Part shown: piece by piece, positions 5,302 through 64,000 of the stretch
How the letters are laid out: every line of letters begins with the position of its first letter
Numbering within the stretch: the first letter of the stretch is position 1
Assembly (NCBI GenBank): GCA_964500675.1
Contig: CAZCNY010000007.1
Coordinates: forward strand, 81,582 to 145,581
DNA length: 64,000 bases
Direction of reading: 5' to 3'
DNA from: an uncultured Verrucomicrobiaceae bacterium
Lineage (GTDB): Bacteria; Pseudomonadota; Gammaproteobacteria; Pseudomonadales; CAMLJR01
The notes under the pieces: generated by a model
What the model was told of the DNA's origin: nothing
The model's database searches: none
The model's input: only the letters and a program-made list of their open reading frames with translations
Translations under genes and position numbers: made by a program

Positions 5302-5463
5302 TTTCTATTTACTCCGAGCGAAGCGATCGCTAAGTTCAAGGCCATGCAACAGCGCATACCGGTCGAGCATTTCATGATGATGAAGCCGCCGGGGCTGCCG
5401 GCTGCGAAATTTGTCGAATACGCCGAGCTATTCGCCAAAGAGGTTATTCCCGCCTTTTGCTGA
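5302..5463 (+). pseudogene. C-terminal remnant (~50 codons) of a luciferase-like monooxygenase (LLM) family gene
   Basis: The frame starting right after the erpA stop reads FLFTPSEAIAKFKAMQQRIPVEHFMMMKPPGLPAAKFVEYAELFAKEVIPAFC*. This matches the usual LLM C-terminal pattern (TPE..A..L......V.H.....P.GLP......S.ELFA.EV.PAF). The preceding ~300 codons of such a gene are absent. Confidence 0.55.
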
Positions 5464-5595
5464 CACGAAACAATCCAGCCCGGGCGATTTTGAAAGCGGT
5501 AACCTGACGTCGGCTTTCATCTAATGGTAATGTGCGTCGTAAGCATTTCGTTCAAAATGCCGTCCACCATTATCTCTCTTCTTGGCTGATGAATC

Positions 5596-6288
5596 ATGTC
5601 GAAACCGGCTCTTGTTCCATTACCTATCATTGCCATTGTGGGAGGCACCGGCGATCTCGGTACCGGATTGGCGCGGCGTTGGGTGCAGGCGGGTTATCCG
5701 GTAATTATCGGTTCGCGCACGGCCGATAAAGCGGAGGCGGCGGCGGCAGCACTGAAAGCGCTGATGCAACAGCGCGGCGCCGGCGCGGTCGATGTGCGCG
5801 GCGCAGACAATGTAGCGGCAGCGCAGGCAGCCGATATCGTCGCGTTGACGGTGCCGTTCAGTCACCAGGCGCCGACACTCGAACAGATTAAATCCGCGCT
5901 CGAAGGCAAAATCCTGATCGATGTCACGGTGCCGCTGGTGCCGCCGAAAGTGATGCGCGTGCAATTGCCGCCCGAGGGCTCGGCGGGACAGATCGCGCAG
6001 AACATTCTCGGTGAAGGCGTGCGCGTGGTGTCGGCGTTTCAGAATGTCGCCGCGCATCATTTGCAGGAAGGCCATGCGCTCGATTGCGATGTGCTTGTGT
6101 GCGGCGACGATAAAGAGGCGCGCGCGCAAGTCATTGCGTTAGTCGAGGCGGCCGGCATGCGCGGTTTTCATGCGGGCTCGATCGCGAACGCGGCGGCGGC
6201 CGAGGCGCTGACCTCGCTGCTCATCTTCATCAACAAACAATACAGCTGCCACGCCGGAATTCGTATCACCGGCCTTAATGACCGTTGA
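5596..6288 (+). CDS. npdG: NADPH-dependent F420 reductase (F420:NADP+ oxidoreductase)
   Basis: 230 aa with IAIVGGTGDLGTGLARRW dinucleotide-binding start typical of Fno/NpdG. It heads the F420 cluster. Confidence 0.8.
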   Translation: MSKPALVPLPIIAIVGGTGDLGTGLARRWVQAGYPVIIGSRTADKAEAAAAALKALMQQRGAGAVDVRGADNVAAAQAADIVALTVPFSHQAPTLEQIKSALEGKILIDVTVPLVPPKVMRVQLPPEGSAGQIAQNILGEGVRVVSAFQNVAAHHLQEGHALDCDVLVCGDDKEARAQVIALVEAAGMRGFHAGSIANAAAAEALTSLLIFINKQYSCHAGIRITGLNDR

Positions 6289-6306
6289 ATAAGTGCGAGC
6301 ATTGAG

Positions 6307-7074
6307 ATGCGTTGTCAGTTGCAATTAAGCGCGCTGCCGGGTATTCCCTTCGTCGAGCCCGGCGATGATTTGTGTGCGCTGATGCTGGCGGCGCTCGATC
6401 GTGCGCAGCAAAAATTGCATGGCGGCGATGTGCTCGTGCTCGCGCAAAAAATCGTTTCCAAAGCCGAAAATCGCTACGTTTATTTGAATACGGTGACGCC
6501 GGGCGCGCGCGCTATCGAATTGGCGCGGCAGGCCGATAAGGATCCGCGCATTGTCGAATTGATTTTGCGCGAATCGGTCGAAGTGCTGCGTGTGCGCAAA
6601 GGCGCGATCATTGTCGAACATCGCAACGGTTATGTGCACGCGCATGCGGGTATCGATCAATCGAATATTGCTTCCGAATCCGATAATCCGCGCGTGTTGC
6701 TGTTGCCGGAAAATTCCGACGCCAGTGCTGCGCAATTGCGCGAACAATTGCGCGCGGCCACGGGTGTCGATGTGGCCATCATCATCAACGACAGCGCGGG
6801 ACGAGCGTGGCGCAATGGCGTGATCGGTTTCGCGCTCGGTAGCGCGGGTTTAATGCCGCTCGAAAATCGCATCGGCACGCGCGATTTATTCGGCCGCGCG
6901 CTCGAAGTGACAGAGGTTGCCGTCGCCGATGAACTGGCGGCGGCGGCATCGTTTTTGATGGGGCAGGCCGCCGAAGGTGCGCCCGTGGTATTGATTCGCG
7001 GTGCTGATATCACGCGATCGGATGACGGTTCGAAAACATTGATTCGTGCGCGCGCGCAGGATTTGTTTCGATGA
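6307..7074 (+). CDS. cofE: coenzyme F420-0:L-glutamate ligase, stand-alone form
   Basis: 255 aa with GDVLVLAQKIVSKAENRYV and HAHAGIDQSN motifs of CofE. There is no C-terminal nitroreductase-like (FbiB-type) extension. Confidence 0.85.
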   Translation: MRCQLQLSALPGIPFVEPGDDLCALMLAALDRAQQKLHGGDVLVLAQKIVSKAENRYVYLNTVTPGARAIELARQADKDPRIVELILRESVEVLRVRKGAIIVEHRNGYVHAHAGIDQSNIASESDNPRVLLLPENSDASAAQLREQLRAATGVDVAIIINDSAGRAWRNGVIGFALGSAGLMPLENRIGTRDLFGRALEVTEVAVADELAAAASFLMGQAAEGAPVVLIRGADITRSDDGSKTLIRARAQDLFR

Positions 7075-8051
7075 CGTTTTCTGGGAAAAAATATCTTGCG
7101 CTGTCGGGCGGCGTCGGCGGCGCGAAACTGGCGGTCGGTCTCGCGCAGTTGCTTGCGCCCGAGCAATTAACGATTGTCGGCAACACGGGCGATGATTTCG
7201 ATCACTACGGCCTGCGCATCTGCCCCGATCTCGACAGCGTCATGTACGCGCTCGCCGGCCGCAATAACGCGGTACAAGGCTGGGGTCTAACGAATGAATC
7301 GTGGCGCGTGCTCGATCAGCTCGGCGCGATCGGCGGCGAAACCTGGTTCAAGCTCGGCGATCTCGATATCGCCACGCATCTGCTGCGTTCGGAATATTTG
7401 CGGCGCGGCGAATCGCTGAGCGCAGCGACCAGAAAATTATGTGCGGGCTTCGGCGTTCAGCATCGCTTGGTGCCGATGAGCGACGACGCGGTAGCAACCA
7501 TCGTCGAAACGGCGAAGGATGAAACCGAAAGCGGCGATCTGAGTTTTCAGCATTATTTCGTGCGCGAGCAATGCAAACCGGTTGTGCGCGGTTTTTATTT
7601 TCGCGGCATCGAGCAAGCCAGGCCGCATCCCGAACTATTGCAGCCGTTGCTCGATAATGCCGTCGACGCCGTGATCATTTGTCCGTCGAATCCGTTTGTG
7701 AGCGTCGATCCGATGCTTCAATTGCCGGGCGTGCGCACAGCATTGCAAAATACCTCGGTGCCCGTCATCGCGGTTTCGCCGATTGTCGGCGGCCATGCCA
7801 TCAAAGGCCCTGCGGCAAAAATGCTGCGCGAGCTTAATTACGCTAGCAGTGCGTTTGCAGTAGCGAAGTACTATCGCGACGTTGTCGATGGTTTTGTGAT
7901 CGATCACGCCGATGCCGATCAACTCGCTGCGATTGCCGAACTCGATATCGTCGCGCATGCAACGGCGAGCGTGATGAAAACTCACGATGATCGCGTTCAA
8001 CTCGCGCGTGCGGTGCTGCAATTCGCCAGTGCACTCGCGGGCGAGCAGTGA
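7071..8051 (+). CDS. cofD: 2-phospho-L-lactate (or analogue) transferase
   Basis: 326 aa with [17 protein letters not shown] start typical of CofD/FbiA. ATGA overlap with the cofE stop. Confidence 0.88.
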
Positions 8052-8057
8052 GAAAGC

Positions 8058-8801
8058 GTGATGCAAGTTCTATTGCCGCTCAAAGAATTCGCCGCCGCTA
8101 AACAGCGGCTCTCCGGTGTGCTCTCGGCTGCCGAGCGCGCGCAATTATTCGAGGCGATGGTCGAGGATGTGCTGCTGGTTCTGACGCGACATCCCGCGAT
8201 TGAAAATATTGCGATCTGCTCGCGCGATCACGCCGCGCGTTGGCTGGCGAATTATTACGAGGTCGAATTTATCGACGAAGCGAAATTGCCGTCCAGCGAT
8301 TTAAATACGGCGGTCAACGCGACGGTGCGTGAAATCGACTCGCGTGGCGAAAACGATCTATGCGTGGTGCACGGCGATTTACCGCTACTGAGCGCTGAAG
8401 ATGTCAGCGCATTTTTACAGGCCCATCGCGACGGTAAAATATCGGCAATGACGATCGCGCCCGATCGTCGCGGCAGCGGCACGAATCTGCTGGCATGGCG
8501 CGCGCTTCCAGATTTGCTGGTGAGTTACGGCGACAACAGTTTTCAGCGCCACTGTGCACTGGCGCGTGAATTGAATATCGATCCTACGATTTGCGATTTG
8601 CCCGGCGCTCGTTGCGATATCGACAATCCCGAGGATTTACTGTTGTTGGTAACGCAGCCCGCGTGCGATGGCGCCGCCAAGAGTCTGGCATTTTTACGCG
8701 ACAGCGGCATCGCCGAGCGGTTGCGCGCCATGCAGCGCAGCGCGAACCGCGCGTGCGGCAAAGAAATCACGCACGGCGGAGATGATCGTGAGCGCGCCTG
8801 A
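8058..8801 (+). CDS. cofC: 2-phospho-L-lactate/phosphoenolpyruvate guanylyltransferase
   Basis: 247 aa with the VLLPLKEFAAAKQRLS start typical of CofC/FbiD. Sits between cofD and fbiC. Confidence 0.78.
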   Translation: MMQVLLPLKEFAAAKQRLSGVLSAAERAQLFEAMVEDVLLVLTRHPAIENIAICSRDHAARWLANYYEVEFIDEAKLPSSDLNTAVNATVREIDSRGENDLCVVHGDLPLLSAEDVSAFLQAHRDGKISAMTIAPDRRGSGTNLLAWRALPDLLVSYGDNSFQRHCALARELNIDPTICDLPGARCDIDNPEDLLLLVTQPACDGAAKSLAFLRDSGIAERLRAMQRSANRACGKEITHGGDDRERA

Positions 8802-11235
8802 GATTTTCGAAATAGTTGCGCAGCAATTGCTCGCCGATAAGCCGCTCAGCGATAGCCAGGCGTTGCAGCTGGCCGCTATCGACGATACCGCAGCATTGAT
8901 GCGCGTCGCCGCGCAATTGCGCGATCGCGGTTTTCGCAATGTCGTTACGTATTCGCGCAAGGTTTTTCTGCCGCTGACGCAACTCTGTCGCGATGTGTGC
9001 CATTACTGCACCTTCGCGCAAACGCCGCGCCATCTTGCCGCGCCGTATATGTCCGTCGATGATGTGATCGCGCAAGTCAAAGCGGCAGAAAAATTGGGTT
9101 GCAAAGAAGCGCTGCTCACGCTCGGCGAAAAACCCGAGCTGCGCTATCGCGTCGCGCGCGAAGCGCTCGATGCGATGGGCTTTGCAACGACGCTCGATTA
9201 TGTTGCGCATGTCGCCGAACGCATCGTGCAGGAAACTTCGGTGCTGCCGCATATCAACGCGGGCACGATGACGCGCGAAGAAATTGCGAAATTACGCACA
9301 GTGAGTGCGTCGATGGGCATCATGCTCGAATCGGCCGCCGCACGTTTGTGCGACAAAGGTCTGCCGCATCACGGTTCGCCCGATAAAATTCCCGCCGTGC
9401 GTTTGGAAACGCTGCGCTTGGCGGGCGAAGCTAACGTGCCGTTCACGAGCGGGATTTTGATCGGCATCGGCGAAACACGGCGCGAGCGCATCGAAAGTTT
9501 ATTGGCATTGCGTGAGATTCATGTGCCCCGTGGTTGTCAGCACAGGGGTCATCTGCAAGAAATCATCGTGCAGAATTTTCGCGCCAAGCCGAATACATTG
9601 ATGGCGCAAGCGCCAGAGCCCGATCTCGATGAATTGCTGTGGACGCTCGCAGTGGCGCGCTGCATTTTCGGCGCGCAGATGAGCATCCAGGCGCCGCCGA
9701 ATTTAAGTCCCGGCGTGTTGCCGCAATTAATCGCCGCGGGCATCAACGATTGGGGCGGTGTGAGCCCGGTGACACCCGATTATGTCAATCCCGAAGCGCC
9801 GTGGCCGCATCTCGATAATCTCGCGCGTGAAACGGCGAGCGCCGGGAAATGTTTGCAAGAGCGGCTGACGATTTATCCTCGGTATGTTTTGGAAAAAGAG
9901 CGTTGGCTCGATGCCTCGCTGCATGAAAATGTGTTGAAGAAAATCGACGCCGAAGGTTTTGCGCGGCTCGATGAGTGGATGCCGGGCAGCGCCACAGAAT
10001 TGCCAGCATTCGATGTCGAGCTGCTGACGAAACCGCCGCGTGCTGCCAGTAAAGATATTGAAGCGATCGTTGCGCGTGCGCGCGCTGGCGAGCGTTTGCA
10101 TGAAAATGAAATCGTACGGCTATTTCAGGTGCGCGGCGATGATTTTGCATTCGTGACACAGGCCGCGAATGCGCTGCGCAATGCGGTGAACGGCGATCGC
10201 GTCGCCTACGTCGTCAATCGCAATATCAATTACACCAATATCTGCTATTTCAAATGTCAGTTCTGTGCCTTCTCGAAAGGCAAGCTCAGCGAAAATTTGC
10301 GCGGGCGTCCTTACGATTTATCGCTCGATGAAATTCAGCGCCGTGTGCGCGAAGCGTGGGATCGCGGCGCGACGGAAGTGTGCATGCAGGGCGGCATTCA
10401 TCCCGACTACACGGGGCAGAAATATCTCGAAATTCTCGCCGCGGTAAAAGACGCGGTGCCGGCAATGCATGTGCACGCCTTTTCACCGCTCGAAGTGTGG
10501 CAGGGCGCGAAAACACTCGGCGTCGATCTCGAAATCTTCTTGCGAAAATTAAAGGAAGCTGGGCTCGGCACGCTGCCGGGTACCGCGGCGGAAATTCTCG
10601 ACGATGAAGTGCGCGCGATCATCTGTCCCGACAAAATCAACACCGAAGATTGGTTGCGTGTGATAGAAACCGCGCATCGCGTCGGTTTGAAAACGACATC
10701 GACCATCATGTACGGCCACGTCGAAAAATTGCAGCACTGGGCGCGGCATTTATTGCGCGTGCGCGCTGTGCAGGAACGCACGGGTGGCATCACCGAATTT
10801 GTGCCGCTGCCGTTTGTGGCGAAGGAGGCGCCGCTGTATTTGAAAGGCCGTGCGCGGCGCGGTCCGACGTTTCGCGAAGCGGTGTTGATGCACGCGGTGG
10901 CTCGCCTCGTCTTGCATCCATTGATTCCGAATATTCAAACGTCGTGGGTCAAGATGGGCGCTGCGGGTGTTGCCGCGTGTTTACATGCGGGTGCGAATGA
11001 CGTTGGTGGCACGTTGATGAATGAATCGATTACGCGTGCAGCGGGTGCCAGTCATGGCGAGGAAATGCCGCCCGAAATGATGGATGCACTGATTCGCAAT
11101 TGTGCGCGCGAGCCGCAGCAGCGCACGACGTTGTACGGCGAGCCGAGTGCTGCACAGGTTGAAAAATCATACAGCGCGCCCGCGCTCGTGCAGATTGTGA
11201 ATACGCCGGTGCCGAAAAAGATTGGCGGAATTTGA
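8782..11235 (+). CDS. fbiC: FO synthase, fused CofG-CofH (two radical-SAM domains)
   Basis: ORF 8668..11235 trimmed to ATG 8782, preceded by GGCGGAG and overlapping cofC by 20 nt. Two radical-SAM Cys triads are present: CRDVCHYCTF and CYFKCQFCAF. Confidence 0.9.
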   Translation: MIVSAPEIFEIVAQQLLADKPLSDSQALQLAAIDDTAALMRVAAQLRDRGFRNVVTYSRKVFLPLTQLCRDVCHYCTFAQTPRHLAAPYMSVDDVIAQVKAAEKLGCKEALLTLGEKPELRYRVAREALDAMGFATTLDYVAHVAERIVQETSVLPHINAGTMTREEIAKLRTVSASMGIMLESAAARLCDKGLPHHGSPDKIPAVRLETLRLAGEANVPFTSGILIGIGETRRERIESLLALREIHVPRGCQHRGHLQEIIVQNFRAKPNTLMAQAPEPDLDELLWTLAVARCIFGAQMSIQAPPNLSPGVLPQLIAAGINDWGGVSPVTPDYVNPEAPWPHLDNLARETASAGKCLQERLTIYPRYVLEKERWLDASLHENVLKKIDAEGFARLDEWMPGSATELPAFDVELLTKPPRAASKDIEAIVARARAGERLHENEIVRLFQVRGDDFAFVTQAANALRNAVNGDRVAYVVNRNINYTNICYFKCQFCAFSKGKLSENLRGRPYDLSLDEIQRRVREAWDRGATEVCMQGGIHPDYTGQKYLEILAAVKDAVPAMHVHAFSPLEVWQGAKTLGVDLEIFLRKLKEAGLGTLPGTAAEILDDEVRAIICPDKINTEDWLRVIETAHRVGLKTTSTIMYGHVEKLQHWARHLLRVRAVQERTGGITEFVPLPFVAKEAPLYLKGRARRGPTFREAVLMHAVARLVLHPLIPNIQTSWVKMGAAGVAACLHAGANDVGGTLMNESITRAAGASHGEEMPPEMMDALIRNCAREPQQRTTLYGEPSAAQVEKSYSAPALVQIVNTPVPKKIGGI

Positions 11236-14735: not shown

Positions 14736-14772
14736 GACATGTTCCTTGCCAGCGATCAGTGGCTATATGCAC

Positions 14773-15345: not shown

Positions 15346-15369
15346 GATCTTTACTCCGTTGCTCGCTGA

Positions 15370-17469: not shown

Positions 17470-17485
17470 GATGATTTCTCCGCGC

Positions 17486-19279: not shown

Positions 19280-19280
19280 T

Positions 19281-19370: not shown

Positions 19371-19508
19371 GAGCGCGGGCCTCCGAGCTTGTCGCAGCCG
19401 GCAACCAGCGCAACCGTGAGCAAATAAAAACCGATGCAAAGACCGACGTAGAGAAAATCCATAATCCACCCCTTGAGGTTTTCAATGAGCTAATACTAGG
19501 AGCATCCC

Positions 19509-19526: not shown

Positions 19527-19785
19527 TGTGGATGGCGCGCTGTTAAGAAGTTGTAAAGGCGCTTGGGATAGCGCGTGGATTACGATAGGTCGTGAAAGCA
19601 ACGTCGGATTTGATCTAAATCACCGCAATGCTAAGTGCTTGCCGCCCAACTCGGACGATGAATCTCATTTATTGCTGTTGCCCGAGGCACCTAGAGGGGG
19701 GCTGTTGAATGGCTGTCTTGGCCGAACTGCTGAAATTTATTTCTATGTGCCGAGTGTCTGATTTTGTCGATTAAGTACGAGGATA

Positions 19786-20377
19786 TTACCGAGACCGCAG
19801 CAATCGCTCGCGAAATTCTCCGGGTGTTAGACCGATCCCGCGCCGGAAGGCAACGCAGAAATTCGATGGCGATGAGAAGCCCAGCGTTTCCGCGATTGCG
19901 GCAACACTTTCATCGGTCGCTAATAAGCGTTTGGCGTGTTCAATCTGTCGCTGCGCAACGTAAGCGCCGATGGAGTGGCCGTAACTGCCAGGGTGCAAGC
20001 CCGCCGTGGGGTTGCGCATCCAACACCACGGTGCCGCGGCGCATCAGTTCGACGGTCAATTGTGTGGTGATGGAATCGACGAGTATTTGACTGGCAAATC
20101 CCGGTTGCCTCGCTTCTTCCGCCAATCTGAGCAGCAGGCTTTGAATGCGTGTGTCCTGCACATCGAGCGCGGCTAGCAATAGATTTTCGGTCGGCTCGGG
20201 GAGGACATCAAATAACTCGATAATGGATTCGCGTTTGAGATGGCAGGTGATCGATGTCAGCGAGGTGCTTTCATCGCTTTCGATCTGTAAATCCAGATCG
20301 GGCGGCGCAATGAAGAAATCGTCGTCACCGCGCGGCGCACGGAAGAAAATATTCAAAAAGTGCCGCTGTCGATACAT
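19786..20377 (-). pseudogene. AraC-family transcriptional regulator, 5'-truncated and internally deleted/frameshifted
   Basis: Two ORF-track pieces in different frames (19940..20377 and 19786..20019). The first ends ...GGLAPWQLRPLHRRLRCAATD*. The second carries only the second HTH half (GHSIGAYVAQRQIEHAKRLLATDESVAAIAETLGFSSPSNFCVAFRRGIGLTPGEFR). About 40 codons that normally hold the first HTH are missing at the junction, and the N-terminal sensing domain is incomplete. Confidence 0.75.
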
Positions 20378-20381
20378 TTAC

Positions 20382-20864
20382 ATGGATGCTTATTTTGTCG
20401 AGTTTATGGTGCCGAGAAGTTCGGCGAGCCCTCAACTCGATTGTACGGGCAGCTATATTTCAAACGGTCAGTTGGGCAATTATTCCTGCATACCGTTTGC
20501 GGATACGCCTAAACAACAATACAGCGTCGGCTTTAATTACAAACTGCCGATCGATAAACAATTTGGTGATGTTGAAGCCGCATTCACTTATAGTCACGTG
20601 GACAAACGTTATACGGCGCCAATAACCGTTCCCCAGGCCGAGCCTGGTGCTTGGCTGGATAGTTTTGGTATCTTGAACGGCAGTATCAGTTGGAGCGAAG
20701 TTTTTAAAACACGGTTCGATTTGCAAGTGTTTGGAACGAATTTAACCAACCAGACCTATCGCGTGTCCAACAGCAATACCTGGAATGAATTGGGTTATCA
20801 AAATACGATTTGGAGTGAGCCTCGCATGTATGGCGTAAAAGCCACGTATCGCTGGGGTGATTAA
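20382..20864 (+). pseudogene. C-terminal ~160-codon fragment of a TonB-dependent receptor
   Basis: The tail of ORF 20145..20864 reads ...YSVGFNYKLPI...LQVFGTNLTNQTYRVSN...SEPRMYGVKATYRWGD. These are typical terminal beta-strands of a TonB-dependent receptor. The plug and most of the barrel are absent, and the upstream part of the ORF is antisense to the AraC remnant. Confidence 0.7.
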
Positions 20865-20882
20865 TAAAAAGGTTGAATACGT

Positions 20883-23019: not shown

Positions 23020-23022
23020 AGA

Positions 23023-25424: not shown

Positions 25425-26333
25425 TCAAAGTTTTGCAATCACCTCCGCTCCAAACCGCGCGGCGTTATCGCACCATTCCGCGCGCGTTTTGCCATCGATG
25501 CTGATGCCCGCGCCGATCACGCCCATTTCCTTGAATTTGCCGATCTTGTCGATGAGTTGTGGCGGAGTCCATTTTTCTCCCGGTTGCGTGATGCTGGCGA
25601 GAAATATCTGCGGCAGGTTGTTGCGTCCGACTTTTTCGCAGTGTTCGCGCATGTAAGCGATGCCGTCGGCGAGGTCGAGTTCGCTGGTCATCGCGGCGGT
25701 GCGTGCGGTCGATGAGACTTGTGCGGGCGTGAAGAAGGGATTCCAGCCGTCGGCCATTTCGACGACGCGGCGAATCGCGCGTTTGGAATTGCCGCCGATA
25801 TAGAGAAGCGGATGCGGCGTTTGCACCGGACGCGGACGCATGCGATTGCCGCGCGCGCTGTAGCCGGTGCCTTCGAAATTAAATTCTTCGCCGGTCCACG
25901 CGAGCTTCATCGCTTGCAGATATTCATCCATGGTTTCGTTGCGGCGTTCGAAATCTGCGCCGAGCGCGAAATATTCGCCTTTCAAATAACCCGCACCGAA
26001 GCTCAACGTTAAACGGCCGTTGGAAAATACATCGAGCGTCGCCGCTGCGCGCGCGACAATGAATGGATTGCGATACGGCAAAACTAAAATGCCGGTTTGC
26101 AGGCGCAATTTTTTCGTGTGCGCGGCGACGAGGCTCAGCATCACGAACGGATCTTGCGCATCGTGGCCGCCGGCATCGAGCCACTTGGCCGTCGGGCAGG
26201 GATGGTCGGTGACATTGCCGCCATTAAATCCAGCGCGCTCTACCGTTTGGCTGATTTCGGCAACCGCATCCATGGTGAGAAATTCTTGCGGAGCAAACGT
26301 GTGATCGAAGGGGAGCGTTACGTTGAGTTTCAT
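25425..26333 (-). CDS. LLM-class oxidoreductase, probably F420-dependent (Rv2161c-like subgroup)
   Basis: ORF 25425..26354 (TTG) trimmed to ATG 26333 (MKLNVTLPF...). NVTDHPCP, LQTGILVLPYRNP and GRLTLSFGAGY blocks are typical of the short (~300 aa) LLM group annotated as F420-dependent. The cofactor assignment is an inference. Confidence 0.75.
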   Translation of the reverse strand: MKLNVTLPFDHTFAPQEFLTMDAVAEISQTVERAGFNGGNVTDHPCPTAKWLDAGGHDAQDPFVMLSLVAAHTKKLRLQTGILVLPYRNPFIVARAAATLDVFSNGRLTLSFGAGYLKGEYFALGADFERRNETMDEYLQAMKLAWTGEEFNFEGTGYSARGNRMRPRPVQTPHPLLYIGGNSKRAIRRVVEMADGWNPFFTPAQVSSTARTAAMTSELDLADGIAYMREHCEKVGRNNLPQIFLASITQPGEKWTPPQLIDKIGKFKEMGVIGAGISIDGKTRAEWCDNAARFGAEVIAKL

Positions 26334-54338: not shown

Positions 54339-55214
54339 ATGAATCGTTCCGCGCCGTACACCCTGGGCATGGCGCTGAGCGAGGCGTGGCAGATGCAGTT
54401 GCGCGAATTGCGCGCCTGCGAGCGCGCAGTGATTGCGGGCGACGATGCCGAGGCGTTGCATCGATTTCGTGTCGCGCTGCGTACCACGCGCGCACTGTTG
54501 CGCTTGTTTCAAAGCGAACTGCCGGAGTCTGAAACGCTCGCGCGCGAATTGGCGTGGTTGTCGGACGCGCTGAATCGCGCGCGCGATCTCGATATCGTCG
54601 CGCAATTTATCCAGGGCCTGGCTGCGCCATCACTGTTAAATGAGCGGCGCGCACTGATCGCATGCAGCCGCGAATTGGCGCGTGAGCACGCGGCGCAACG
54701 TCGGGCCGTGCAAACGCTGCTGCGCGGGCGCCGCTATCGGCGGCTGTTGCAAGAGTGGGAAAATTATATCGCGCATCGCGTGCGCGAAGCCGAGCTTCCG
54801 ATCGCGCTGCATATTCGTGCCGAAACGGCACAACGCGTTATCGCACTTGCGCAGGCGCTGAAATTATTGCGGCGCTTGCACCGCATCGATAACGACTGCG
54901 CACCCGCAACGTTGCACCGGTTACGCATTCGCTGCAAGCGTCTGCGCTATTTATTCGAAGCACTGCCGCAGACGCGCACCGACAAAAAAATTGCCGCGCT
55001 GGTAAAAGCACTGGCGCGCCTGCAACGTATTTTGGGCGAGCACCAGGATGCAGTCGTCATTCGCGCGTGGTTTGCGCAGCTTGCCGATCGCCATGATGCC
55101 GCTATCGAAATACCGCAAACCTGGCATATCGCGGTCGAGCGACAACAGCGGCGCAGGTTGACCGCATTGCCGCGCGCATGGCATGCGTTGGTTAAAACCT
55201 GTGTCGGCATTTGA
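54339..55214 (+). CDS. CHAD domain-containing protein
   Basis: ~291 aa, helical. EALHRFRVALRTTRALLRLF and HRLRIRCKRLRYLFE are typical conserved CHAD His/Arg helices. Lies 29 nt after the EAL gene. Confidence 0.8.
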   Translation: MNRSAPYTLGMALSEAWQMQLRELRACERAVIAGDDAEALHRFRVALRTTRALLRLFQSELPESETLARELAWLSDALNRARDLDIVAQFIQGLAAPSLLNERRALIACSRELAREHAAQRRAVQTLLRGRRYRRLLQEWENYIAHRVREAELPIALHIRAETAQRVIALAQALKLLRRLHRIDNDCAPATLHRLRIRCKRLRYLFEALPQTRTDKKIAALVKALARLQRILGEHQDAVVIRAWFAQLADRHDAAIEIPQTWHIAVERQQRRRLTALPRAWHALVKTCVGI

Positions 55215-55551
55215 ATTTTCGGGTGTTCGGAAAGCGATGATGAAAGCGGAGGCTTGATGGCGTCGGTCGAAACGTTCCACTCGCCATCATTCCCAGCGCG
55301 CCAGAGTTGACAAAAGCTCGGGCATTGCCAGAGATAAAGAATTCTTGCTCCGTGTACCCTAAACTCGCCAAATTGATTGCCGACGACTGAAAGGGAAAGC
55401 CGTGAGCGCCAGCCAGCGGGTTTGAGACCGTTGGCGTTGGTACTGCCGCCATGCCGGTCATGGGCGCAGCGACATTATCCCTACTCAAAGCCGAAACGAA
55501 ACTACAATACACGATAAAAATACCGGGAGGAGTTGAATGACGCAAAAACAA
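55192..55551 (-). pseudogene. N-terminal remnant of a paralogue of the 56253..57785 hydrolase-like gene (frameshifted, 3'-truncated)
   Basis: INLASLGYTEQEFFISGNARAF aligns with FDLGSVGYQQSEYFISGKARSY of the intact gene. The next segment matches only in another frame (NDGEWNV versus TDGKWSV) before returning (SLRFHHRFP versus FKTRFLIYRP). The ORF then ends inside the CHAD gene 3' end. Confidence 0.65.
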
Positions 55552-56040: not shown

Positions 56041-56061
56041 GTTAGTTATTTTTGAACTAAC
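56041..56061 (+). other. AT-rich hairpin immediately after the marR stop
   Basis: GTTAGTT-atttttg-AACTAAC (7-bp perfect stem) with no T-run. Could be a weak terminator or a protein-binding site. Confidence 0.3.
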
Positions 56062-56125
56062 TCTATAAATAGTGGCAAGAAATCGCATCCCCGCACTAGC
56101 CATCTCCACTTCATCTTGCGTTTTA

Positions 56126-56142
56126 TATCAGGCTGCCTGATA
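56126..56142. promoter_or_regulatory. 17-bp palindrome, candidate MarR operator
   Basis: TATCAGGC-T-GCCTGATA lies between marR and the hydrolase-like gene, 111 nt upstream of ATG 56253. Confidence 0.4.
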
Positions 56143-56252
56143 CTTGCTGCGCCATGTGACATCTGGCGCTCGCCGAGATCGATTACTACCGATCATTTAA
56201 GATAAAAAATAAGAGAGCGCATTAAGCAATACGAACAGACAGGACATCAAAA

Positions 56253-58344: not shown

Positions 58345-59082
58345 CTAATTGCCGCGATGAGGTCGAGCGCATCCGAACAAAATCAAATCACTCAACTGCC
58401 GCGAAACTTCGGAAAGGTCGCCGGTTTTTCCCGTCATGACACGATCCATTGCGATCGCGAAAAACATGCCGAAGCTCGCCAGTTCAACCAAGTCCGGGTC
58501 CATCGTATCCTTGATCACATTGCGCACGAGTTCCGTGCGCGCTTTGATCAGCGGTTGGATTTGTTCCCGATACAGTTTTTTACCCAGCGTCTGATCCGAG
58601 AATAATGCCTGAGCCAATAACGGATAAATCTCAATCATATTCTCCAGATGTTTTTGCATGCCCGTGTTGATGAGTTTCGACAAACTTTCGGGCGAATCGG
58701 CCGCCTCATAGACCTGGTAGCGCTCGCGCACGCCTTCGAGCAGCGCAACCAGCGGCTGCAAAACGGCGGCGGCGAACAAATCTTCCTTCGATTTGAAATG
58801 GCCGAACAGCGTTGCTTGATTGATGCCGGCGGCCTGCGCGAGATCGCGGGTGCGCGAGCCTCGTAAGCCGGAGCGTGCGAAGACTTCCTTAGCCGCTTCG
58901 AGAATCAGTTGTCTGCGTTCTTCGGCGGGCAAATAGTGCCGGCGTTTTTCCGATGCCGATGGTTTGCGGGAATTTTCAGCCGTCGATTGTGCTTTTGTCT
59001 TTTTCGGCGGATGTTTTTTTGCCGTGGGTTTTTCTCGATTCATTGCTGCTGATACCTGAGTGCTTGAATTAACCGGCGCCAT
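58345..59082 (-). CDS. TetR-family transcriptional regulator with basic N-terminal extension
   Basis: ORF 58345..59427 trimmed to ATG 59082 (alternative 59043). HTH is RTRDLAQAAGINQATLFGHFKSKEDLF. The 5' part of the listed ORF is antisense to the CAR start. Confidence 0.85.
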   Translation of the reverse strand: MAPVNSSTQVSAAMNREKPTAKKHPPKKTKAQSTAENSRKPSASEKRRHYLPAEERRQLILEAAKEVFARSGLRGSRTRDLAQAAGINQATLFGHFKSKEDLFAAAVLQPLVALLEGVRERYQVYEAADSPESLSKLINTGMQKHLENMIEIYPLLAQALFSDQTLGKKLYREQIQPLIKARTELVRNVIKDTMDPDLVELASFGMFFAIAMDRVMTGKTGDLSEVSRQLSDLILFGCARPHRGN

Positions 59083-59218: not shown

Positions 59219-62200
59219 ATGACCACGACCACCAGGACTACTACTGCCACGACCACTAGCGCGAAGACTGCGACCGAGGATACCGATCCGCGCGTGAAGT
59301 TGGCGCAGCGCATGAAAATGTTCAGCGCCGAAGATGCGCAGTTCCGCGCCGCATTTCCACTCCAAGAGGTCAGCGAAGCGAAGCGGCAACCGGGATTGCG
59401 ACTCGCCCAGATCGTGCAAATCGTCATGGAAGGTTATGCCGAGCGACCGGCGCTCGGGCAGCGCGCACGCGAGCTCGTCACCGATCCCGCCAACGGGCGC
59501 AAAACGCTCAGGCTCTTGCCGAAATTCGAAACCATCAGTTATCGGGATTTGTGGGCGCGGTCGCGTGCGGTCGCCAGCGCATGGCATCGCGACCCCAAAA
59601 ATCCGCTGCGCGCGGGCGATTTCGTTTGCATTCTGGGTTTCACGACCCCGGACTACGCGGCGATTTTGTTGGCGAATATTTCGCTCGGCGCGGTCAATGT
59701 GCCGCTGCAAACGAGCGCCTCGGTGCGCAATCACGTCGATATCATGGCCGAAACCGAAGCGCGCATTTTGGCCGCGAGCATCGATTACCTCGATGCCGCG
59801 GTGAACGCCGTGCTTGCGAGCGCGGTACCGCAGCGCCTGGTGGTTTTTGATTACGATGCGCGCGACGACGATCAGCGCGAAAAATGGCAGAACGCACATA
59901 AGCGATTGGCGGATGCGAACAGCGCGATCGTTGTCGATACGCTCGATGCAAGCGCCGATCGCGGCATGGCGCTACCGTTAGAGCCGCTGTTTGTGCCGGC
60001 AGCCGACGAAGATCCGCTGGCGTGGTTGTTTTACACCTCCGGTTCTACGGGTACGCCGAAAGGGGCGATCTTCACCGAGAAACTCGCGATCACGACTTGG
60101 CTCAGCGATGTGCCGATGCCGGTGATCACGCTGAGTTTCATGCCGATGGCGCACTTGGTCGGCAACGGTTATCTGCTGCTCGCGCTGGCGAACGGAGGCA
60201 CGAGTTATTGTTCGCCGAGAGCCGATTTGTCGACATTGTTCGAGGATTTTTCGCTGGCTCGCCCCACGATGAGTTCGTTAGTGCCGCGCGTTTGCGAATT
60301 GTTTTATCACCACTATCTCAGTGAGGTCGAAAGGCTCGGCGCAAGCCTCGCCGCTGAAATCAAAAAAGAAATGCGAGAGAAGACGATGGGCGGCCGCTTG
60401 TTATCGGTCGGTTGTGGTTCGGCTTCGCTCGCGCCGGAAACTTATGCGTTCATGGAATCGATGCTCGATATGCACATGGCCATCGGTTATTCCTCCACGG
60501 AAATCGCAGGCGGCACCGTGCTCGTCGATTGGAAGGTGCAGCGTCCGCCCGTGATTGATTACAAACTCGACGATGTACCCGAATTAGGGTATTTCAAAAC
60601 CGACAAACCGTATCCGCGCGGCGAGCTGTTGGTGAAATCCGATCGTTTCATGGGCGGCTATTACAAGCAGCCCGGTCTCACGGCGGACAAGTTCGACGCC
60701 GATGGTTTTTATCGGACCGGCGACGTCATGGCCGAGCGCGGGCCAGACCATCTGACGTTTGTCGATCGGCGCAACAATGTCATCAAGCTCTCGCAAGGCG
60801 AATTCGTCGCGATCTCGCGGCTGGAGGCGTTGTATTCGCACAGCCCGGAGATTCGACAGATTTACATTTATGGCACGAGCGAGCGCGCGTTTCTGCTCGC
60901 CGTCATCGTGCCTTCCGAAGAACTCGTCGCCGGGCTCGGGCGCGATGGTGCGGGGCGCGACTCAGTGAAGCTCGCGCTGCGCCATTCGCTGAAATGGATC
61001 GCCGATCAAGAAAATCTCAATGGCTACGAAATTCCGCGCGATTTTTTGATCGAGACCGAGCCATTCAGTTTGAAGAACGGACTTCTCACCGAAGTCGGCA
61101 AGCATCAGCGTCCGAAACTGAAGGAGCGTTACGACGAGCAGTTGGAGCAACTGTACACTCACATTGCGCGGGAGCAGCTCGATGAATTGCGCGCGCTGCG
61201 CTCCGGCGGCGCCGATCGACCGACGCTGGAAACCGTGACGCGCGCATTGCAGGCGGTTCTCGGTGTCGCCGCGACGGATGTAAGCCCCGAGGTGAAATAC
61301 GGCGAATTGGGAGGAGACTCGCTGTCGGCGCTCGAATTTTCGAAATTGCTGGAAGATATTTTCGACATCGAAGTGCCCGTCGGCGTCATTATCAATCCCG
61401 CCGGCAACGTGCGAGGTATCGCGGACTACATCGAGGCCGAGCGCAATTCCAGTGCGAAGCGTCCGACGTTTGCGCGCGTGCACGGCAAGCACAGCACCGT
61501 GGTGTCCGCCGCCGAACTCACGCTCGATAAGTTCATCGATCAGCGGATTCTCTCTAACGCATTAACACTGCCGCGATCCGGTGAATCCGTTCGTACGGTC
61601 CTGTTGACCGGCGCCACGGGTTATCTCGGCCGCTTCCTCGCCCTGTCGTGGTTGGAGCAAATGGCTAAAACCGGCGGTCAGCTCATGCTTATTGTGCGAT
61701 CTAACGATTTATCTGAGGCGCGACGGCGCATCGAAGGCGCGCTCGCTACCGATCCCGAATTGACGAAACATTTTCAAGCGCTGGCCGCTGATCATCTCGA
61801 AGTGATAGCAGGCGATCTCGGCGCGCCAAATCTCGGCTTGGATGCAGCAACCTGGGACCGGCTCGCCGAAACGGTCGACGCGATCGTGCACTCGGGTGCG
61901 CACGTCAATCACGTGTTGCCTTACAACCAATTGTTCGCGGCAAATGTGGCCGGCACGGCGGAATTGATCCGGCTCGCGATCACGAGCCGGCGCAAACGCA
62001 TTCACTACATCTCGACGCTGGGCGTGAGCGCGTTGTCGACTCGTCTGGTCGATGAAGACAGCGATATTCGCGATGCCGTGCCCGTCTGCGAAATTAACGC
62101 TAGCTATGCTAACGGCTACGGCATCAGCAAATGGGCGAGCGAAGTTCTGCTGCGCGAAGCGTTCGATTTGTGCGAATTGCCGATCGATGTTTTCCGCCCC

Positions 62201-62764
62201 GGCATGATTCTCGCGCACAGCCGTTACCAGGGGCAGTTGAACGTGCCCGATATGTTCACACGGTTGCTGTTCAGTCTGGCTGTCACCGGCGTGGCACCGG
62301 CGAGTTTTTACGCACAGGATGTGTCGGCGGGGCGGCCGCGCGCGCGCTACGAAGGTTTTGCCGCCGATTTTCTCGCCGCTGCGATCGTCGCGATCGGCAG
62401 CCGGGATACGCAGGGGTTTCACACATACAATCTGTCGAGCCCGCACGAGGAGGGCGTCGGGCTCGATGATTTCGTCGATTGGCTCGTCGATGCCGGTTGC
62501 AACATCGAACGCGTCGCTAAGTACGACGAGTGGCTGACGCGATTCGAAACCGCGATGCAGGCGCTGCCTGAAGCGCAGAAGCAGCAATCATTGCTCGCGC
62601 TGCTCGGACCGTATCGAAATCCGCAGATGGCCGGTGCAAAATCGCCGTTGACGAGTGAGCGGTTCTGCGCAGCGGCGACAGCAGCCGGTTTCAATATTCC
62701 CCGCTTGTCGGCGGCGCTGATCACCAAGTACGTTGCCGACTTGCGGCATCTTGGCTTGTTGTAA
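59219..62764 (+). CDS. carboxylic acid reductase (adenylation - PCP - thioester reductase; FadD9/CAR type)
   Basis: ORF 59192 (TTG) trimmed to ATG 59219. Has A-domain motifs LFYTSGSTGTPKGA and YRTGDV, carrier motif LGGDSLSA, reductase Rossmann LLTGATGYLGRFL and YGISKWASE (YxxxK). Overall 1181 aa, like Nocardia/Mycobacterium CARs. Confidence 0.9.
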   Translation: MTTTTRTTTATTTSAKTATEDTDPRVKLAQRMKMFSAEDAQFRAAFPLQEVSEAKRQPGLRLAQIVQIVMEGYAERPALGQRARELVTDPANGRKTLRLLPKFETISYRDLWARSRAVASAWHRDPKNPLRAGDFVCILGFTTPDYAAILLANISLGAVNVPLQTSASVRNHVDIMAETEARILAASIDYLDAAVNAVLASAVPQRLVVFDYDARDDDQREKWQNAHKRLADANSAIVVDTLDASADRGMALPLEPLFVPAADEDPLAWLFYTSGSTGTPKGAIFTEKLAITTWLSDVPMPVITLSFMPMAHLVGNGYLLLALANGGTSYCSPRADLSTLFEDFSLARPTMSSLVPRVCELFYHHYLSEVERLGASLAAEIKKEMREKTMGGRLLSVGCGSASLAPETYAFMESMLDMHMAIGYSSTEIAGGTVLVDWKVQRPPVIDYKLDDVPELGYFKTDKPYPRGELLVKSDRFMGGYYKQPGLTADKFDADGFYRTGDVMAERGPDHLTFVDRRNNVIKLSQGEFVAISRLEALYSHSPEIRQIYIYGTSERAFLLAVIVPSEELVAGLGRDGAGRDSVKLALRHSLKWIADQENLNGYEIPRDFLIETEPFSLKNGLLTEVGKHQRPKLKERYDEQLEQLYTHIAREQLDELRALRSGGADRPTLETVTRALQAVLGVAATDVSPEVKYGELGGDSLSALEFSKLLEDIFDIEVPVGVIINPAGNVRGIADYIEAERNSSAKRPTFARVHGKHSTVVSAAELTLDKFIDQRILSNALTLPRSGESVRTVLLTGATGYLGRFLALSWLEQMAKTGGQLMLIVRSNDLSEARRRIEGALATDPELTKHFQALAADHLEVIAGDLGAPNLGLDAATWDRLAETVDAIVHSGAHVNHVLPYNQLFAANVAGTAELIRLAITSRRKRIHYISTLGVSALSTRLVDEDSDIRDAVPVCEINASYANGYGISKWASEVLLREAFDLCELPIDVFRPGMILAHSRYQGQLNVPDMFTRLLFSLAVTGVAPASFYAQDVSAGRPRARYEGFAADFLAAAIVAIGSRDTQGFHTYNLSSPHEEGVGLDDFVDWLVDAGCNIERVAKYDEWLTRFETAMQALPEAQKQQSLLALLGPYRNPQMAGAKSPLTSERFCAAATAAGFNIPRLSAALITKYVADLRHLGLL

Positions 62765-62800
62765 CCGACAAATGTAGCAGTCAATCAGAAGGAAAAATTC

Positions 62801-64000
62801 TTGGATCGAATAGATTGGATTCGCGGCGATTCGATGGGCTTGGAGATTCCGGCCCACAGCGAATCGTTGCGAGCGGGCGGGGCCGAATTTCTTACTCATG
62901 CATTTCATGCCGCCGGTTCGCTGCCAACGGATAACCGCGTTATGCGCATTGCGGAGTGCAAGGAGGTTGCGGGCGGTAGCACTGGGCGTAAATTGCTGCT
63001 CGCGGTGGAATACGAAAAATCGTCGCCGAATTTGCACACTGATCTGTTCGTGAAATTCTCGCGCGATTTCGACGATGAAATTCGCGATCAAGCGAAAAGT
63101 CAAATGGAGCTGGAAGTGCTGTTTGCGTTGTTGTCGCGCAGCCCCGAATTTCCGATAGCCGTGCCGATTTGTTATTTCTCCGATTATCACCGCGAGTCCG
63201 GCACCGGAATTCTGATCACGCAACGCATTACGTATGACGCGAATGGTGTCGAGCCGCACTACGCAAAATGTCTTGATTATCATATGTCGGATCAGCTCGG
63301 GCATTACCAGGCGCTGATCAGGGCGCTGGCGCGTTTGGCGGGAACACATAAAGCCGGACGTTTGCCGGATATTGTCGAAAAATATTTTCCGTTCGACCAC
63401 GCCAGGCTGGTTGTGAGCAAGCGCGTCGCGTATACGCCCGAGCAAATCAGTGAGAGAGTGTTTGCATACGCGGAATTTGCAAAAAAATATCCGCAACTGT
63501 TGCCGGCAAACATTCGTTCCGATGAGTTTTTCGCGCGCTTAACAGCAGAAGCGCCGCGCTTTCAGGCATTGATGGCGGTTGGTCATCAGGTTTTGCAAAG
63601 CAGACACGACATGATCGCGCTCTGTCATTGGAATGCGCACATCGATAATGCGTGGTTTTGGCGCAATAGCGAAGGCCGGCTGCAATGCGGTCTCATGGAT
63701 TGGGGCAATGTGAGCCAAATGAATGTGGCAATGGCGATTTGGGGTTGCCTGAGCGGCGCTGAACTCACACTCTGGGACGAGCATTTGGACGAGCTGCTGA
63801 CATTATTTATTCGCGAATTTCAACACTGCGGCGGCCCCGCGCTCGATTTCGCCGAATTGAAATTGCATTTAACTATCTACGTGGCGGCGATGGGTTTGAA
63901 CTGGATGCTGGACTCGACGCGTTTGTTGTCGAAGATTCCCGATTTGGCAACAGCGGAAAATCGCCTCGACGCGCGTATTCAAGTCAACGAGCGCGCACGC
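62801..64000 (+). CDS. phosphotransferase-family protein (APH/choline-kinase-like fold), 3' end outside window
   Basis: Absent from the ORF track because it is open at the window end. My translation from TTG 62801 (AAGGA RBS; alternative ATG 62834) gives 400 in-frame codons, including LCHWNAHIDNAWFW (catalytic-loop HxxxxDN) and GLMDWGNV (DxG-like metal site). Confidence 0.75.
   Translation, partial: MDRIDWIRGDSMGLEIPAHSESLRAGGAEFLTHAFHAAGSLPTDNRVMRIAECKEVAGGSTGRKLLLAVEYEKSSPNLHTDLFVKFSRDFDDEIRDQAKSQMELEVLFALLSRSPEFPIAVPICYFSDYHRESGTGILITQRITYDANGVEPHYAKCLDYHMSDQLGHYQALIRALARLAGTHKAGRLPDIVEKYFPFDHARLVVSKRVAYTPEQISERVFAYAEFAKKYPQLLPANIRSDEFFARLTAEAPRFQALMAVGHQVLQSRHDMIALCHWNAHIDNAWFWRNSEGRLQCGLMDWGNVSQMNVAMAIWGCLSGAELTLWDEHLDELLTLFIREFQHCGGPALDFAELKLHLTIYVAAMGLNWMLDSTRLLSKIPDLATAENRLDARIQVNERAR

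Follow-up and report, generated by a model that had tools for sequence, protein, structure and literature searches.

We analysed a 64,000-nucleotide stretch of contig CAZCNY010000007.1 (hereafter the window), which carries an operon for the biosynthesis of cofactor F420 and, on the opposite strand, a small module coding for a sulfotransferase, a DUF7064-family protein, a short-chain dehydrogenase/reductase (SDR) and an F420-type luciferase-like monooxygenase (LLM). About 55 genes were called in the window and then scanned against Pfam and NCBIfam profiles, with the curated NCBIfam cut-offs as threshold for family calls (scores below are given in bits against the cut-off). An initial annotation, made from the sequence alone, had described a mycobacteria-like set of redox and lipid genes embedded in a gammaproteobacterial core, and had ascribed it either to repeated horizontal acquisition or to an ancient lineage-specific expansion.

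ArgC is 94% identical to the proteins of Spongiibacteraceae metagenome-assembled genomes (MAGs), 77% and 71% to those of further Spongiibacteraceae MAGs, and 69-71% to those of Dasania, Oceanicoccus, Alcanivorax and Pseudohongiellaceae. On the basis of these identities the host is placed among the uncultured Spongiibacteraceae (Cellvibrionales; GTDB Pseudomonadales). Two relatives are used throughout: GCA_964631955.1 (ArgC 93% identical), represented by the two contigs L084 and L110, and GCA_047602265.1 (F420-type LLM 93% identical), represented by the 3.54-Mb contig L085. Among the other loci compared, L102 and L103 belong to Pseudomaricurvus sp. HS19 and GCA_033283175.1, L092 and L094 are metagenome loci, L109 is a soil contig, L107 is the Mycolicibacterium madagascariense plasmid pJCM13574 and L108 is the Sphingomonas paeninsulae plasmid NZ_CP032828.1.

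The F420 biosynthesis operon

The five genes of the operon lie on the plus strand in the following order:

5596..6288, plus strand: npdG (fno), NADPH-dependent F420 reductase (TIGR01915, 214.6 against 149.8; 90% identical to the L110 orthologue)
6307..7074, plus strand: cofE, F420-0:glutamate ligase, single-domain (TIGR01916, 273 against 181)
7071..8051, plus strand: cofD/fbiA, phospho-lactyl (or analogue) transferase (TIGR01819, 304 against 257)
8058..8801, plus strand: cofC/fbiD, guanylyltransferase (TIGR03552, 148.6 against 105)
about 8782..11235, plus strand: fbiC, FO synthase with fused CofG and CofH (NF006687, 1118 against 1018)

The CofG and CofH domain models both exceed their cut-offs in the fbiC product, which probably starts with MIVSAPEIF at 8782; alignments with homologues begin near query residue 47. 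By profile score the FO synthase, the CofC/FbiD and CofD/FbiA pair and CofE are all accounted for, and the operon npdG-cofE-cofD-cofC-fbiC is predicted to be complete by gene content. FO would be made by FbiC; a phospho-acid linker (2-phospholactate, phosphoenolpyruvate or 3-phosphoglycerate) would then be attached by CofC and CofD, and glutamates added by the single-domain CofE, while NpdG would exchange hydride between NADPH and F420, thereby charging the cofactor. The enzyme assignments of the predicted FbiC, CofC, CofD, CofE and NpdG are shown by homology.

CofE, of 255 amino acids (aa), extends over no more than positions 12-243 of NF009810, the FbiB-type model of 449 positions; its matches in the PDB are limited to chains deposited as CofE-type F420 glutamate ligases, which we take to be archaeal enzymes. 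It is therefore predicted to be a single-domain enzyme of archaeal type, lacking the nitroreductase domain of FbiB. CofC is about equally distant from M. mazei CofC (62.8 bits), M. tuberculosis FbiD (59.3 bits) and the 3-phosphoglycerate-type CofC of M. rhizoxinica (51.7 bits). A scan of the operon for promoters and terminators returned sites no more common than in shuffled sequences.

Scanning one genome per GTDB species for FbiC gave 571 relatives, whose best 80 loci (61-80% identity) were analysed. The order npdG-cofE-cofD-cofC-fbiC on a single strand is found in 45 of these 80 loci, and cofE-cofD-cofC-fbiC in 11 more. The loci come mostly from Spongiibacteraceae, Halieaceae, Porticoccaceae, Pseudohongiellaceae, Azotimanducaceae and unclassified "Pseudomonadales" or Gammaproteobacteria, with isolates such as Litorivivens lipolytica, Zhongshania antarctica, Neomelitea salexigens, Seongchinamella unica and Haliea sp. 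E17; a smaller number belongs to Chloroflexota, Alphaproteobacteria and Acidobacteriota. No actinobacterial FbiC is present among the best 80 of the 571. In a neighbour-joining tree (81 sequences, 804 columns, 200 bootstraps) the window FbiC groups with that of a Spongiibacteraceae MAG in 200/200 replicates, and the two with Litorivivens, Zhongshania and Neomelitea in 123/200; separate clades are made up by Halieaceae (99/200), by the Pseudohongiella group (97/200) and by the non-gammaproteobacterial sequences (148/200). The FbiC tree thus follows family taxonomy.

In three of the loci compared, cofC and fbiC are fused in one gene of 978-988 aa (L094, 15430-18366; L102, 3878-6844; L103, 3889-6843). 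This three-domain fusion is not among the known gene fusions given by the review of F420 biosynthesis (PMC8498797).

The sulfotransferase-DUF7064-SDR-LLM module

The gene calls define a second operon, on the minus strand, of which the main members are listed below with their extent:

25261-29536, minus strand: operon of sulfotransferase, DUF7064, SDR, TIGR03619 LLM and a 42-codon open reading frame (ORF)
25425..26333, minus strand: F420-type LLM (LLM2), TIGR03619, Rv2161c family (229.5 against 166.9)
26378..27235, minus strand: classical SDR (adh_short, 191 bits; 76-90% identical to the L085, L102, L103 and L110 orthologues)
27312..28394, minus strand: DUF7064-family protein (PF23212, 28 bits)
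28391..29521, minus strand: Stf-type sulfotransferase dependent on 3'-phosphoadenosine-5'-phosphosulfate (PAPS) (PF13469, 128.5 against 27)

The only solved structures related to the sulfotransferase are PDB 2Z6V (E 2e-53) and 2ZQ5 (E 3.5e-42), deposited as putative uncharacterized proteins; we take them to be the mycobacterial Stf9 and Stf1 structures, Stf1 presumably being Rv3529c. As read from the sequence, the enzyme carries a PRTGST loop of the 5'-phosphosulfate-binding type. LLM2 has homologues of 93-95% identity in the nearest relatives, falling to 68-70% within the best 120 considered, where the named taxa are Spongiibacteraceae and Pseudomaricurvus. Its PDB relatives score 64 bits or less and comprise both FMN and F420 enzymes. 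The TIGR03619 family was reportedly defined by Selengut and Haft in 2010 through its co-occurrence with F420 biosynthesis genes.

For the DUF7064 protein, a PDB sequence search returned noise only and a single-sequence AlphaFold2 model was unusable (predicted local distance difference test score, pLDDT, 35). The family is small, with 600 representatives at E<=1e-3 among 1.84 billion sequences, and in 10 of 16 metagenome loci its gene stands beside a sulfotransferase and/or an SDR or LLM gene. Since the family is so small, its repeated linkage with F420 genes is unlikely to be due to chance. A TIGR03619 LLM is adjacent to F420 genes, or within 10 kb of them, in L085, L092, L094, L102, L103 and L110. 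In L110 the four module genes adjoin the F420 operon. Pseudomaricurvus sp. HS19 and GCA_033283175.1 both have the co-directional string fno, fused cofC-fbiC, sulfotransferase, DUF7064, SDR and LLM, with cofE-cofD divergent upstream; identities to the window are 65-66% for the sulfotransferase, 38-39% for DUF7064, 76-77% for the SDR and 69% for the LLM. L092 and L094 have SDR-LLM followed, further on, by TetR-fno-sulfotransferase-DUF7064-LLM-sulfotransferase, with the fused cofC-fbiC 4 kb away. The supply of cofactor by the F420 operon to the 25261-29536 operon, which the initial annotation had proposed, is supported by this conserved linkage, and the case is good for a computational prediction.

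Other neighbourhoods bear on the reaction. In L094 the module is surrounded by KstD-like, KshA-like, thiolase and MaoC genes. On the Sphingomonas paeninsulae megaplasmid (L108, 744-10044) it stands beside cysD-cysN-cysQ, genes for PAPS supply and clean-up, a neighbourhood that would fit a working sulfotransferase. On the Mycolicibacterium plasmid (L107, 7034-10026) sulfotransferase, SDR and DUF7064 genes are consecutive, with P450, ferredoxin and SDR genes around them; the three are 28-39% identical to those of the window, the DUF7064 protein 39% (E 1.5e-75). Judging from the linkage, the TIGR03619 LLM would consume or regenerate F420H2. More speculatively, LLM, SDR and DUF7064 protein might interconvert an alcohol and a ketone on a hydrophobic substrate, possibly steroid- or lipid-like, which the sulfotransferase would then sulfate.

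Conservation and rearrangement of the F420 block

Two further features of this part of the window become clear by comparison with the relatives:

5310..5462, plus strand: 3' remnant of an LLM gene, about the last 50 codons; the translation ends in PPGLPAAKFVEYAELFAKEVIPAFC at the stop codon
11332..19370, minus strand: kdpE-D-C-B-A-F (Pfam), between fbiC and the accessory operons

In GCA_964631955.1 the genes are divided between two contigs. L110 has the order ygiQ-TauE-glpK-mpe1-AraC, then sulfotransferase-DUF7064-SDR-LLM, then a fatty-acid hydroxylase, then fbiC-cofC-cofD-cofE-fno-LLM (336 aa), and L084 has hemB to argC-erpA followed by tamB-tamA-anmK. L085 has glpK-mpe1-AraC, the module, kdpEDCBAF, the hydroxylase and fbiC. 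Between the window and GCA_964631955.1 the F420 genes are 74-90% identical (fno 90, cofE 86, cofD 83, cofC 74 and fbiC 84%) and the module genes 78-88%; core genes give 87% for ygiQ, 81% for glpK, 73% for mpe1, 86% for hemB, 88% for thiD, 82% for hemJ, 93% for ArgC and 95% for erpA. F420 and module genes have therefore diverged to the same degree as core genes.

The remnant at 5310-5462 (153 bases) matches the C-terminus of the LLM of L110 (336 aa) with 78% identity over 51 aa (E 3e-25), and this intact counterpart sits upstream of fno. Nucleotide synteny with the close relatives L083 and L084 stops at 5302/5305, at the end of erpA. It follows from the orthology of the remnant and from the loss of synteny at this point that the F420 block was cut within the LLM gene and joined to erpA.

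By blastn, the kdp segment (11338-19558 in the window) has the opposite orientation in L085, the closest complete relative; inverted repeats longer than 9 bases are absent from the boundaries of this inversion (11.3 kb and 25.3 kb). The operon is missing at the equivalent position of L110, where only the hydroxylase (FA_hydroxylase) lies between LLM2 and fbiC. Within kdp the lowest G+C content at third codon positions (GC3) is that of kdpE (0.515). Relative to L110, kdp and the receptor operon described below went into the F420 block, and not the reverse.

The window from 5.3 to 35.8 kb would accordingly derive by rearrangement from an ancestral F420 block, kept intact by the relatives in the order LLM-npdG-cofE-cofD-cofC-fbiC, fatty-acid hydroxylase, F420-type LLM-SDR-DUF7064-Stf-type sulfotransferase, AraC and mpe1-glpK-ygiQ. 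Three changes would account for the present arrangement: the upstream LLM gene was cut and joined to erpA, leaving a stump of 50 codons; insertions separated fbiC from the F420-LLM operon, one being the kdp operon and the other an operon coding for a TonB receptor, membrane proteins, COX3-COX4, a LuxA-like LLM and an SDR, with a truncated first gene and a dead AraC gene; and the AraC gene beside the sulfotransferase was lost. The picture of a toolkit embedded in a core, drawn by the initial annotation, thus turns out to be partly inverted, as the "core" kdp operon is itself an insertion into the ancestral F420 block.

The operon at 20883-25195

Between kdp and the module lie a gene-poor stretch (19486-20882) with two gene remnants, and the operon that follows it:

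19770..20400, minus strand: frameshifted remnant of an AraC-family regulator, with the helix-turn-helix (HTH) and the N-terminal part in two frames
20478..20864, plus strand: gene for a TonB-dependent receptor cut down to its C-terminal 128 codons; it stands first in the operon
20883-21587 and 21584-22366, plus strand: two paralogous membrane proteins, of no Pfam family, with the shared motif TGP[LF]AWDG
22378-23019, plus strand: COX3-like protein (Pfam, NCBIfam and gene calls)
23023-23301, plus strand: COX4_pro-like protein (Pfam, NCBIfam and gene calls)
23353-24411, plus strand: LuxA-like LLM (LLM1), closest in the PDB to alkanal monooxygenase alpha
24440-25195, plus strand: classical SDR (Pfam)

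Over its 128 aa the receptor remnant matches an intact receptor of 808 aa in the soil contig L109 at 60% identity (E 3e-58), and the L103 receptor at 23%. Homologues of the next four genes of the window operon (62, 56, 48 and 48% identical) come after the receptor in L109 (16108-20912), and this set stands beside the module. The operon was also considered as a strain-specific insertion, being absent at the L085 site; this was dropped, as L109 has receptor, membrane proteins and COX3-COX4 by the module. The AraC remnant was also compared with the AraC genes flanking the module in L085 and L103, but identities of only 50-57% in the HTH and 29% in the rest do not establish orthology. The string of receptor, two membrane proteins, COX3-like and COX4_pro-like proteins is conserved in the window and L109, and COX1 and COX2 are absent from it.

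LLM1 matches PDB 8CBB with 147 bits and V. harveyi LuxA (1BRL) with 94 bits, and fails every F420-LLM cut-off (TIGR03619, 98.4 against 166.9). By similarity it would be an FMN enzyme of LuxA type. It aligns end to end with LuxA-type proteins (NF052254, positions 14-351 of 354), but scores 115 against a luciferase cut-off of 600, has no luxB or luxCDE partners, and sits with COX3/COX4-like and membrane proteins. Because the LLM of this operon is FMN/LuxA-like, a supply of F420 to 20883-25195, the other half of the earlier proposal, is not supported.

The carboxylic acid reductase and the remaining genes

At the far end of the window lie a carboxylic acid reductase (CAR) gene and the third gene fragment:

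55192..55551, minus strand: N-terminal fragment of about 90 residues of a diverged Abhydrolase_10 paralogue (PF20091, positions 2-66 of 429)
58345..59043, minus strand: TetR regulator, divergent from CAR (Pfam; 232-aa gene call)
59219..62764, plus strand: CAR, of adenylation, carrier protein and reductase architecture (A-PCP-R; equivalog model NF041592, 1602 against 1300)

CARs use ATP, NADPH and a phosphopantetheinyl arm. The window protein has AMP-binding, PP-binding and NAD_binding_4 domains and aligns over its full length with the Nocardia, Segniliparus and M. marinum structures (5MSC, 1390 bits; 5MSP, 5MSO). Its best non-self match is 78% identical, against 93-95% for ArgC and LLM2. Matches of 62-78% come from Novosphingobium, Haliea sp. 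E17, Mangrovimicrobium, Steroidobacteraceae and many metagenomes, and actinobacterial plasmid CARs are 45-49% identical. None of the CAR matches lies on the 3.54-Mb contig of GCA_047602265.1, the gene neighbours differ in every genome examined, and neither the window nor the 6.5 kb downstream holds a phosphopantetheinyl transferase gene. As the best match reaches 78% only and the relative contig yields none, CAR is a patchy accessory gene within Proteobacteria. It belongs to a proteobacterial CAR clade and is not linked to F420.

On the 3' side of CAR (62801-64000 and beyond; L082, 4723-7762) are genes for a 429-aa protein, an enoyl-CoA hydratase and a 304-aa SDR. No Pfam family matches the 429-aa protein, in which a kinase-like HxxxxxN motif can be read by eye; the 304-aa SDR is also found 3' of CAR in L105 and L106. 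The Abhydrolase_10 fragment is 28% identical to the neighbouring intact copy, and beside it lies the marR and Abhydrolase_10 pair (55537-57785), of low GC (0.45 and 0.51).

The other genes of the window can be summarised as follows:

1-5301: hemB, class-III aminotransferase, thiD, hemJ, argC and erpA, upstream of the F420 block
After the sulfotransferase operon, in order: 561-aa protein, glpK, low-GC orphan, ygiQ, purU, phoBR, pstB, phoU and HiPIP
Further on: the glyoxylate-shunt set icd, glcB, aceK, LysR regulator and isocitrate lyase (ICL), then signalling genes, marR-Abhydrolase_10, TetR and CAR

Some of these genes deserve a comment. L083 has a further Abhydrolase_10 gene (7807-9378) between thiD and hemJ; the window lacks one at this position. 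The 561-aa protein (29657-31342, plus strand), weakly matched by calcineurin-like phosphoesterases and hydrophobic in its C-terminal half, adjoins glpK in both relatives and is 73% identical there. Between glpK and ygiQ, the orphan ORF at 32872-33591 (minus strand, 239 aa) has a GC of 0.39 and a GC3 of 0.41, and no match in Pfam or PADLOC; its site is occupied by the TauE gene in L110 and by other genes in L085, and it is probably a recent foreign insertion. The genes icd, glcB, aceK and ICL cluster with a LysR regulator; in the icd/glcB part (42800-46268, minus strand) some 180 bases are shared between the longest icd ORF and the 3' end of glcB, and the match to Iso_dh begins only at residue 102, so that the true start of icd is probably well downstream of that of the longest ORF.

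Integrase and transposase families are absent from the Pfam scans of the window ORFs, as are tRNA and tmRNA genes from the window; the window scan gave no match to Rfam families, and a PADLOC scan of its unannotated ORFs no relevant match.

The gene inventory of the initial annotation largely stands. The F420 biosynthesis cluster, the F420-type LLM, the LLM remnant, the LuxA-like LLM, the Stf-like sulfotransferase and the FadD9-type CAR that it had named are all present, at the positions it gave or close to them, and so are the interspersed kdpFABCDE, phoBR-pstB-phoU, glpK, purU and aceK-glcB-icd/ICL genes; the junctions that it had called scars (5302-5463, 19486-20882 and 55192-55551) each hold a truncated gene that relatives keep as an intact orthologue. 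Its count of three SDRs has to be amended, since two classical SDRs lie in the window, a third lies beyond its end, and the reductase domain of CAR is of SDR fold. An extension of the cofactor supply to CAR, which uses ATP and NADPH, is not supported.

Origin of the genes

We consider it likely that the window contains a rearranged ancestral F420 block, inherited vertically since the common ancestor with its relatives, that the F420 operon is standard for the order, and that CAR is a separate matter. The vertical reading is drawn from the homologues within the host's own order, the FbiC tree, host-like codon use, core-like divergence and synteny in the relatives. The F420 genes have a GC3 of 0.63-0.69 (window mean 0.64, sd 0.06), and the range is 0.59-0.70 when both LLMs, the SDRs, the sulfotransferase and CAR are included, with codon use also within the normal range of the window; the only outliers in GC3 or codon use are the orphan at 32872-33591, marR, Abhydrolase_10 and kdpE. 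Tests for a genomic island found in the F420 operon and the module neither atypical composition, nor mobility genes or tRNA at the borders, nor absence from relatives; this last feature applies in part to CAR.

The repeated horizontal acquisition named by the initial annotation can be read as a recent one from Actinobacteria (mycobacteria-like donors), gene by gene, with the scars as insertion junctions. Such a history finds some footing in families best known from mycobacteria, in the full-length alignment of CAR to actinobacterial CARs, in a sulfotransferase whose only structures are 2Z6V and 2ZQ5, in the pseudogene remnants at three junctions, and in the homologous sulfotransferase-SDR-DUF7064 trio on a Mycolicibacterium plasmid. 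However, the nearest FbiC, LLM2 and CAR homologues include no actinobacterial sequence, close relatives hold syntenic orthologues at core-like divergence, CofE lacks the actinobacterial fusion of FbiB, and the window has no tRNA, integrase or transposase gene. Moreover, all three scars are truncated resident genes at points of rearrangement or insertion, and not the ends of insertion elements. Codon use is host-like too; composition is weak evidence here. Recent acquisition is thus largely refuted and highly improbable; for the F420 operon and the module it is not supported, whereas ancient, lineage-typical inheritance, the other possibility named by the initial annotation, is. Vertical inheritance typical of the host clade, the outcome that the annotation itself had set against acquisition, is indeed what was found. 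Its epithet "mycobacteria-like" is apt at the level of families, but CofE is single-domain and CAR is nearer to proteobacterial (62-78%) than to actinobacterial (45-49%) proteins. The fusion of fbiC is considered to have arisen in Actinobacteria and to have spread to other bacteria (PMC8498797); any actinobacterial transfer of the F420 genes would be ancient, predating the order.

The co-location might also be mostly a coincidence, with F420 operon, LLM operons and CAR functionally unrelated and the common theme a product of family names. CAR, 30 kb away, using ATP and NADPH and with neighbours that change from genome to genome, would agree with this, as would the FMN-type LuxA-like LLM, the fact that SDRs and sulfotransferases are not F420 users, and the absence of the module from the 10 kb around most of the 80 FbiC loci. 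Against it, the module adjoins F420 strings or is fused into them in at least six independent loci of several lineages (L085, L092, L094, L102, L103 and L110), chance linkage of so small a family as DUF7064 is improbable, and L110 and several further loci have an LLM gene directly upstream of fno. On balance we regard coincidence as unlikely. An assembly or binning chimera of actinobacterial and gammaproteobacterial DNA is the least probable explanation, and can be almost discounted: the source is apparently a draft assembly, and the nine window proteins found in the collection (ten were looked up) are all singletons at 90% identity, but independent Logan contigs (SRR11845634) are 100% identical across stretches of 20.7-35.6 kb, of 58.3-64 kb and downstream, composition is uniform, and the relatives have the same gene neighbourhoods.

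Several points nevertheless weigh against a vertically inherited F420 block that serves the module. The dehydro-F420-0 reductase (FbiE or FbiB's C-terminal domain) is absent from the window, where Pfam scans of about 60 ORFs gave no match to the nitroreductase family. The deeper FbiC clades are moderately supported (bootstrap 50-74%), and the tree was built without an actinobacterial outgroup, so that it is not informative on ultimate origin; FbiC, about 60% identical across phyla, is so conserved that transfer within the order could have occurred. In each of the 80 more distant loci the F420 operon has different flanks, pointing to a fluid position, and the DNA examined amounts to 64 kb from a single genome. 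As regards function, the putative F420 dependence of TIGR03619 derives from a computational family definition and gene linkage, and the substrate suggested for the module is a speculative guess from gene neighbours in other organisms.

Comparison with known systems and significance

The F420 clusters described outside Actinobacteria, in Alpha- and Betaproteobacteria and Chloroflexi, have the same fused fbiC, separate cofC and cofD and single-domain cofE as the window operon (Grinter and Greening 2021, PMC8498797). In Betaproteobacteria Fno is the sole recognisable F420-reducing enzyme (PMC8498797), and the same holds for the window operon, which differs from the reviewed clusters in its gammaproteobacterial host, in npdG as first gene and in its conservation throughout an order. 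Gammaproteobacteria are not mentioned in the main text of this review, according to which the role of F420 has not been studied experimentally outside Actinobacteria (PMC8498797). A literature search found no paper linking F420 to Cellvibrionales families, and nothing relevant joining F420 with a sulfotransferase. With the mycobacterial Fbi pathway the window shares the fused FbiC and the FbiD- and FbiA-like enzymes; its CofE, however, has no nitroreductase domain, an FbiE-like gene is absent from the window, Fno is found instead of Fgd, and CofC is no nearer to FbiD than to archaeal CofC. The window pathway is thus predicted not to be of mycobacterial type.

Members of the M. tuberculosis KstR cholesterol regulon include Rv3529c, a conserved hypothetical protein, Rv3530c, an oxidoreductase, and Rv3531c, a hypothetical protein, with the F420-dependent oxidoreductase Rv3520c nearby (PMC6429209, PMC1995591). 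This set resembles the window module in composition, although Rv3531c is likened by position and description only; it differs in that the window LLM belongs to TIGR03619 and not to the Rv3520c family (TIGR03559), and in that the window has no steroid-catabolic genes. The CAR shares the A-PCP-R architecture of the actinobacterial enzymes (Nocardia iowensis Car; M. tuberculosis FadD9 type), differing from them in its proteobacterial clade and in the lack of a phosphopantetheinyl transferase gene in the window. We advance, as a tentative and rather doubtful proposal, that the trio shared with mycobacteria, which is coupled to a TIGR03619 LLM and the F420 operon in Cellvibrionales and certain further bacteria, may make up a pathway, dependent on F420 and so far undescribed, for the modification and sulfation of a steroid- or lipid-like alcohol.

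The complete npdG-cofEDC-fbiC operon is a conserved trait of several Cellvibrionales families, and the data agree with its vertical inheritance. It places an F420 cluster in a bacterial class largely overlooked by the F420 literature, and its carriers are abundant marine and soil heterotrophs, including cultured ones (Pseudomaricurvus sp. HS19, Zhongshania antarctica and Litorivivens lipolytica). Family labels ("FadD9", "Stf", "Rv2161c family") can hint at horizontal transfer where none occurred. The small four-gene module, repeatedly linked to the F420 operon, offers a concrete place to seek an F420-dependent reaction in Gram-negative bacteria; if the pathway proposed for it is real, it would provide the first assignable physiological role for F420 in Gammaproteobacteria.

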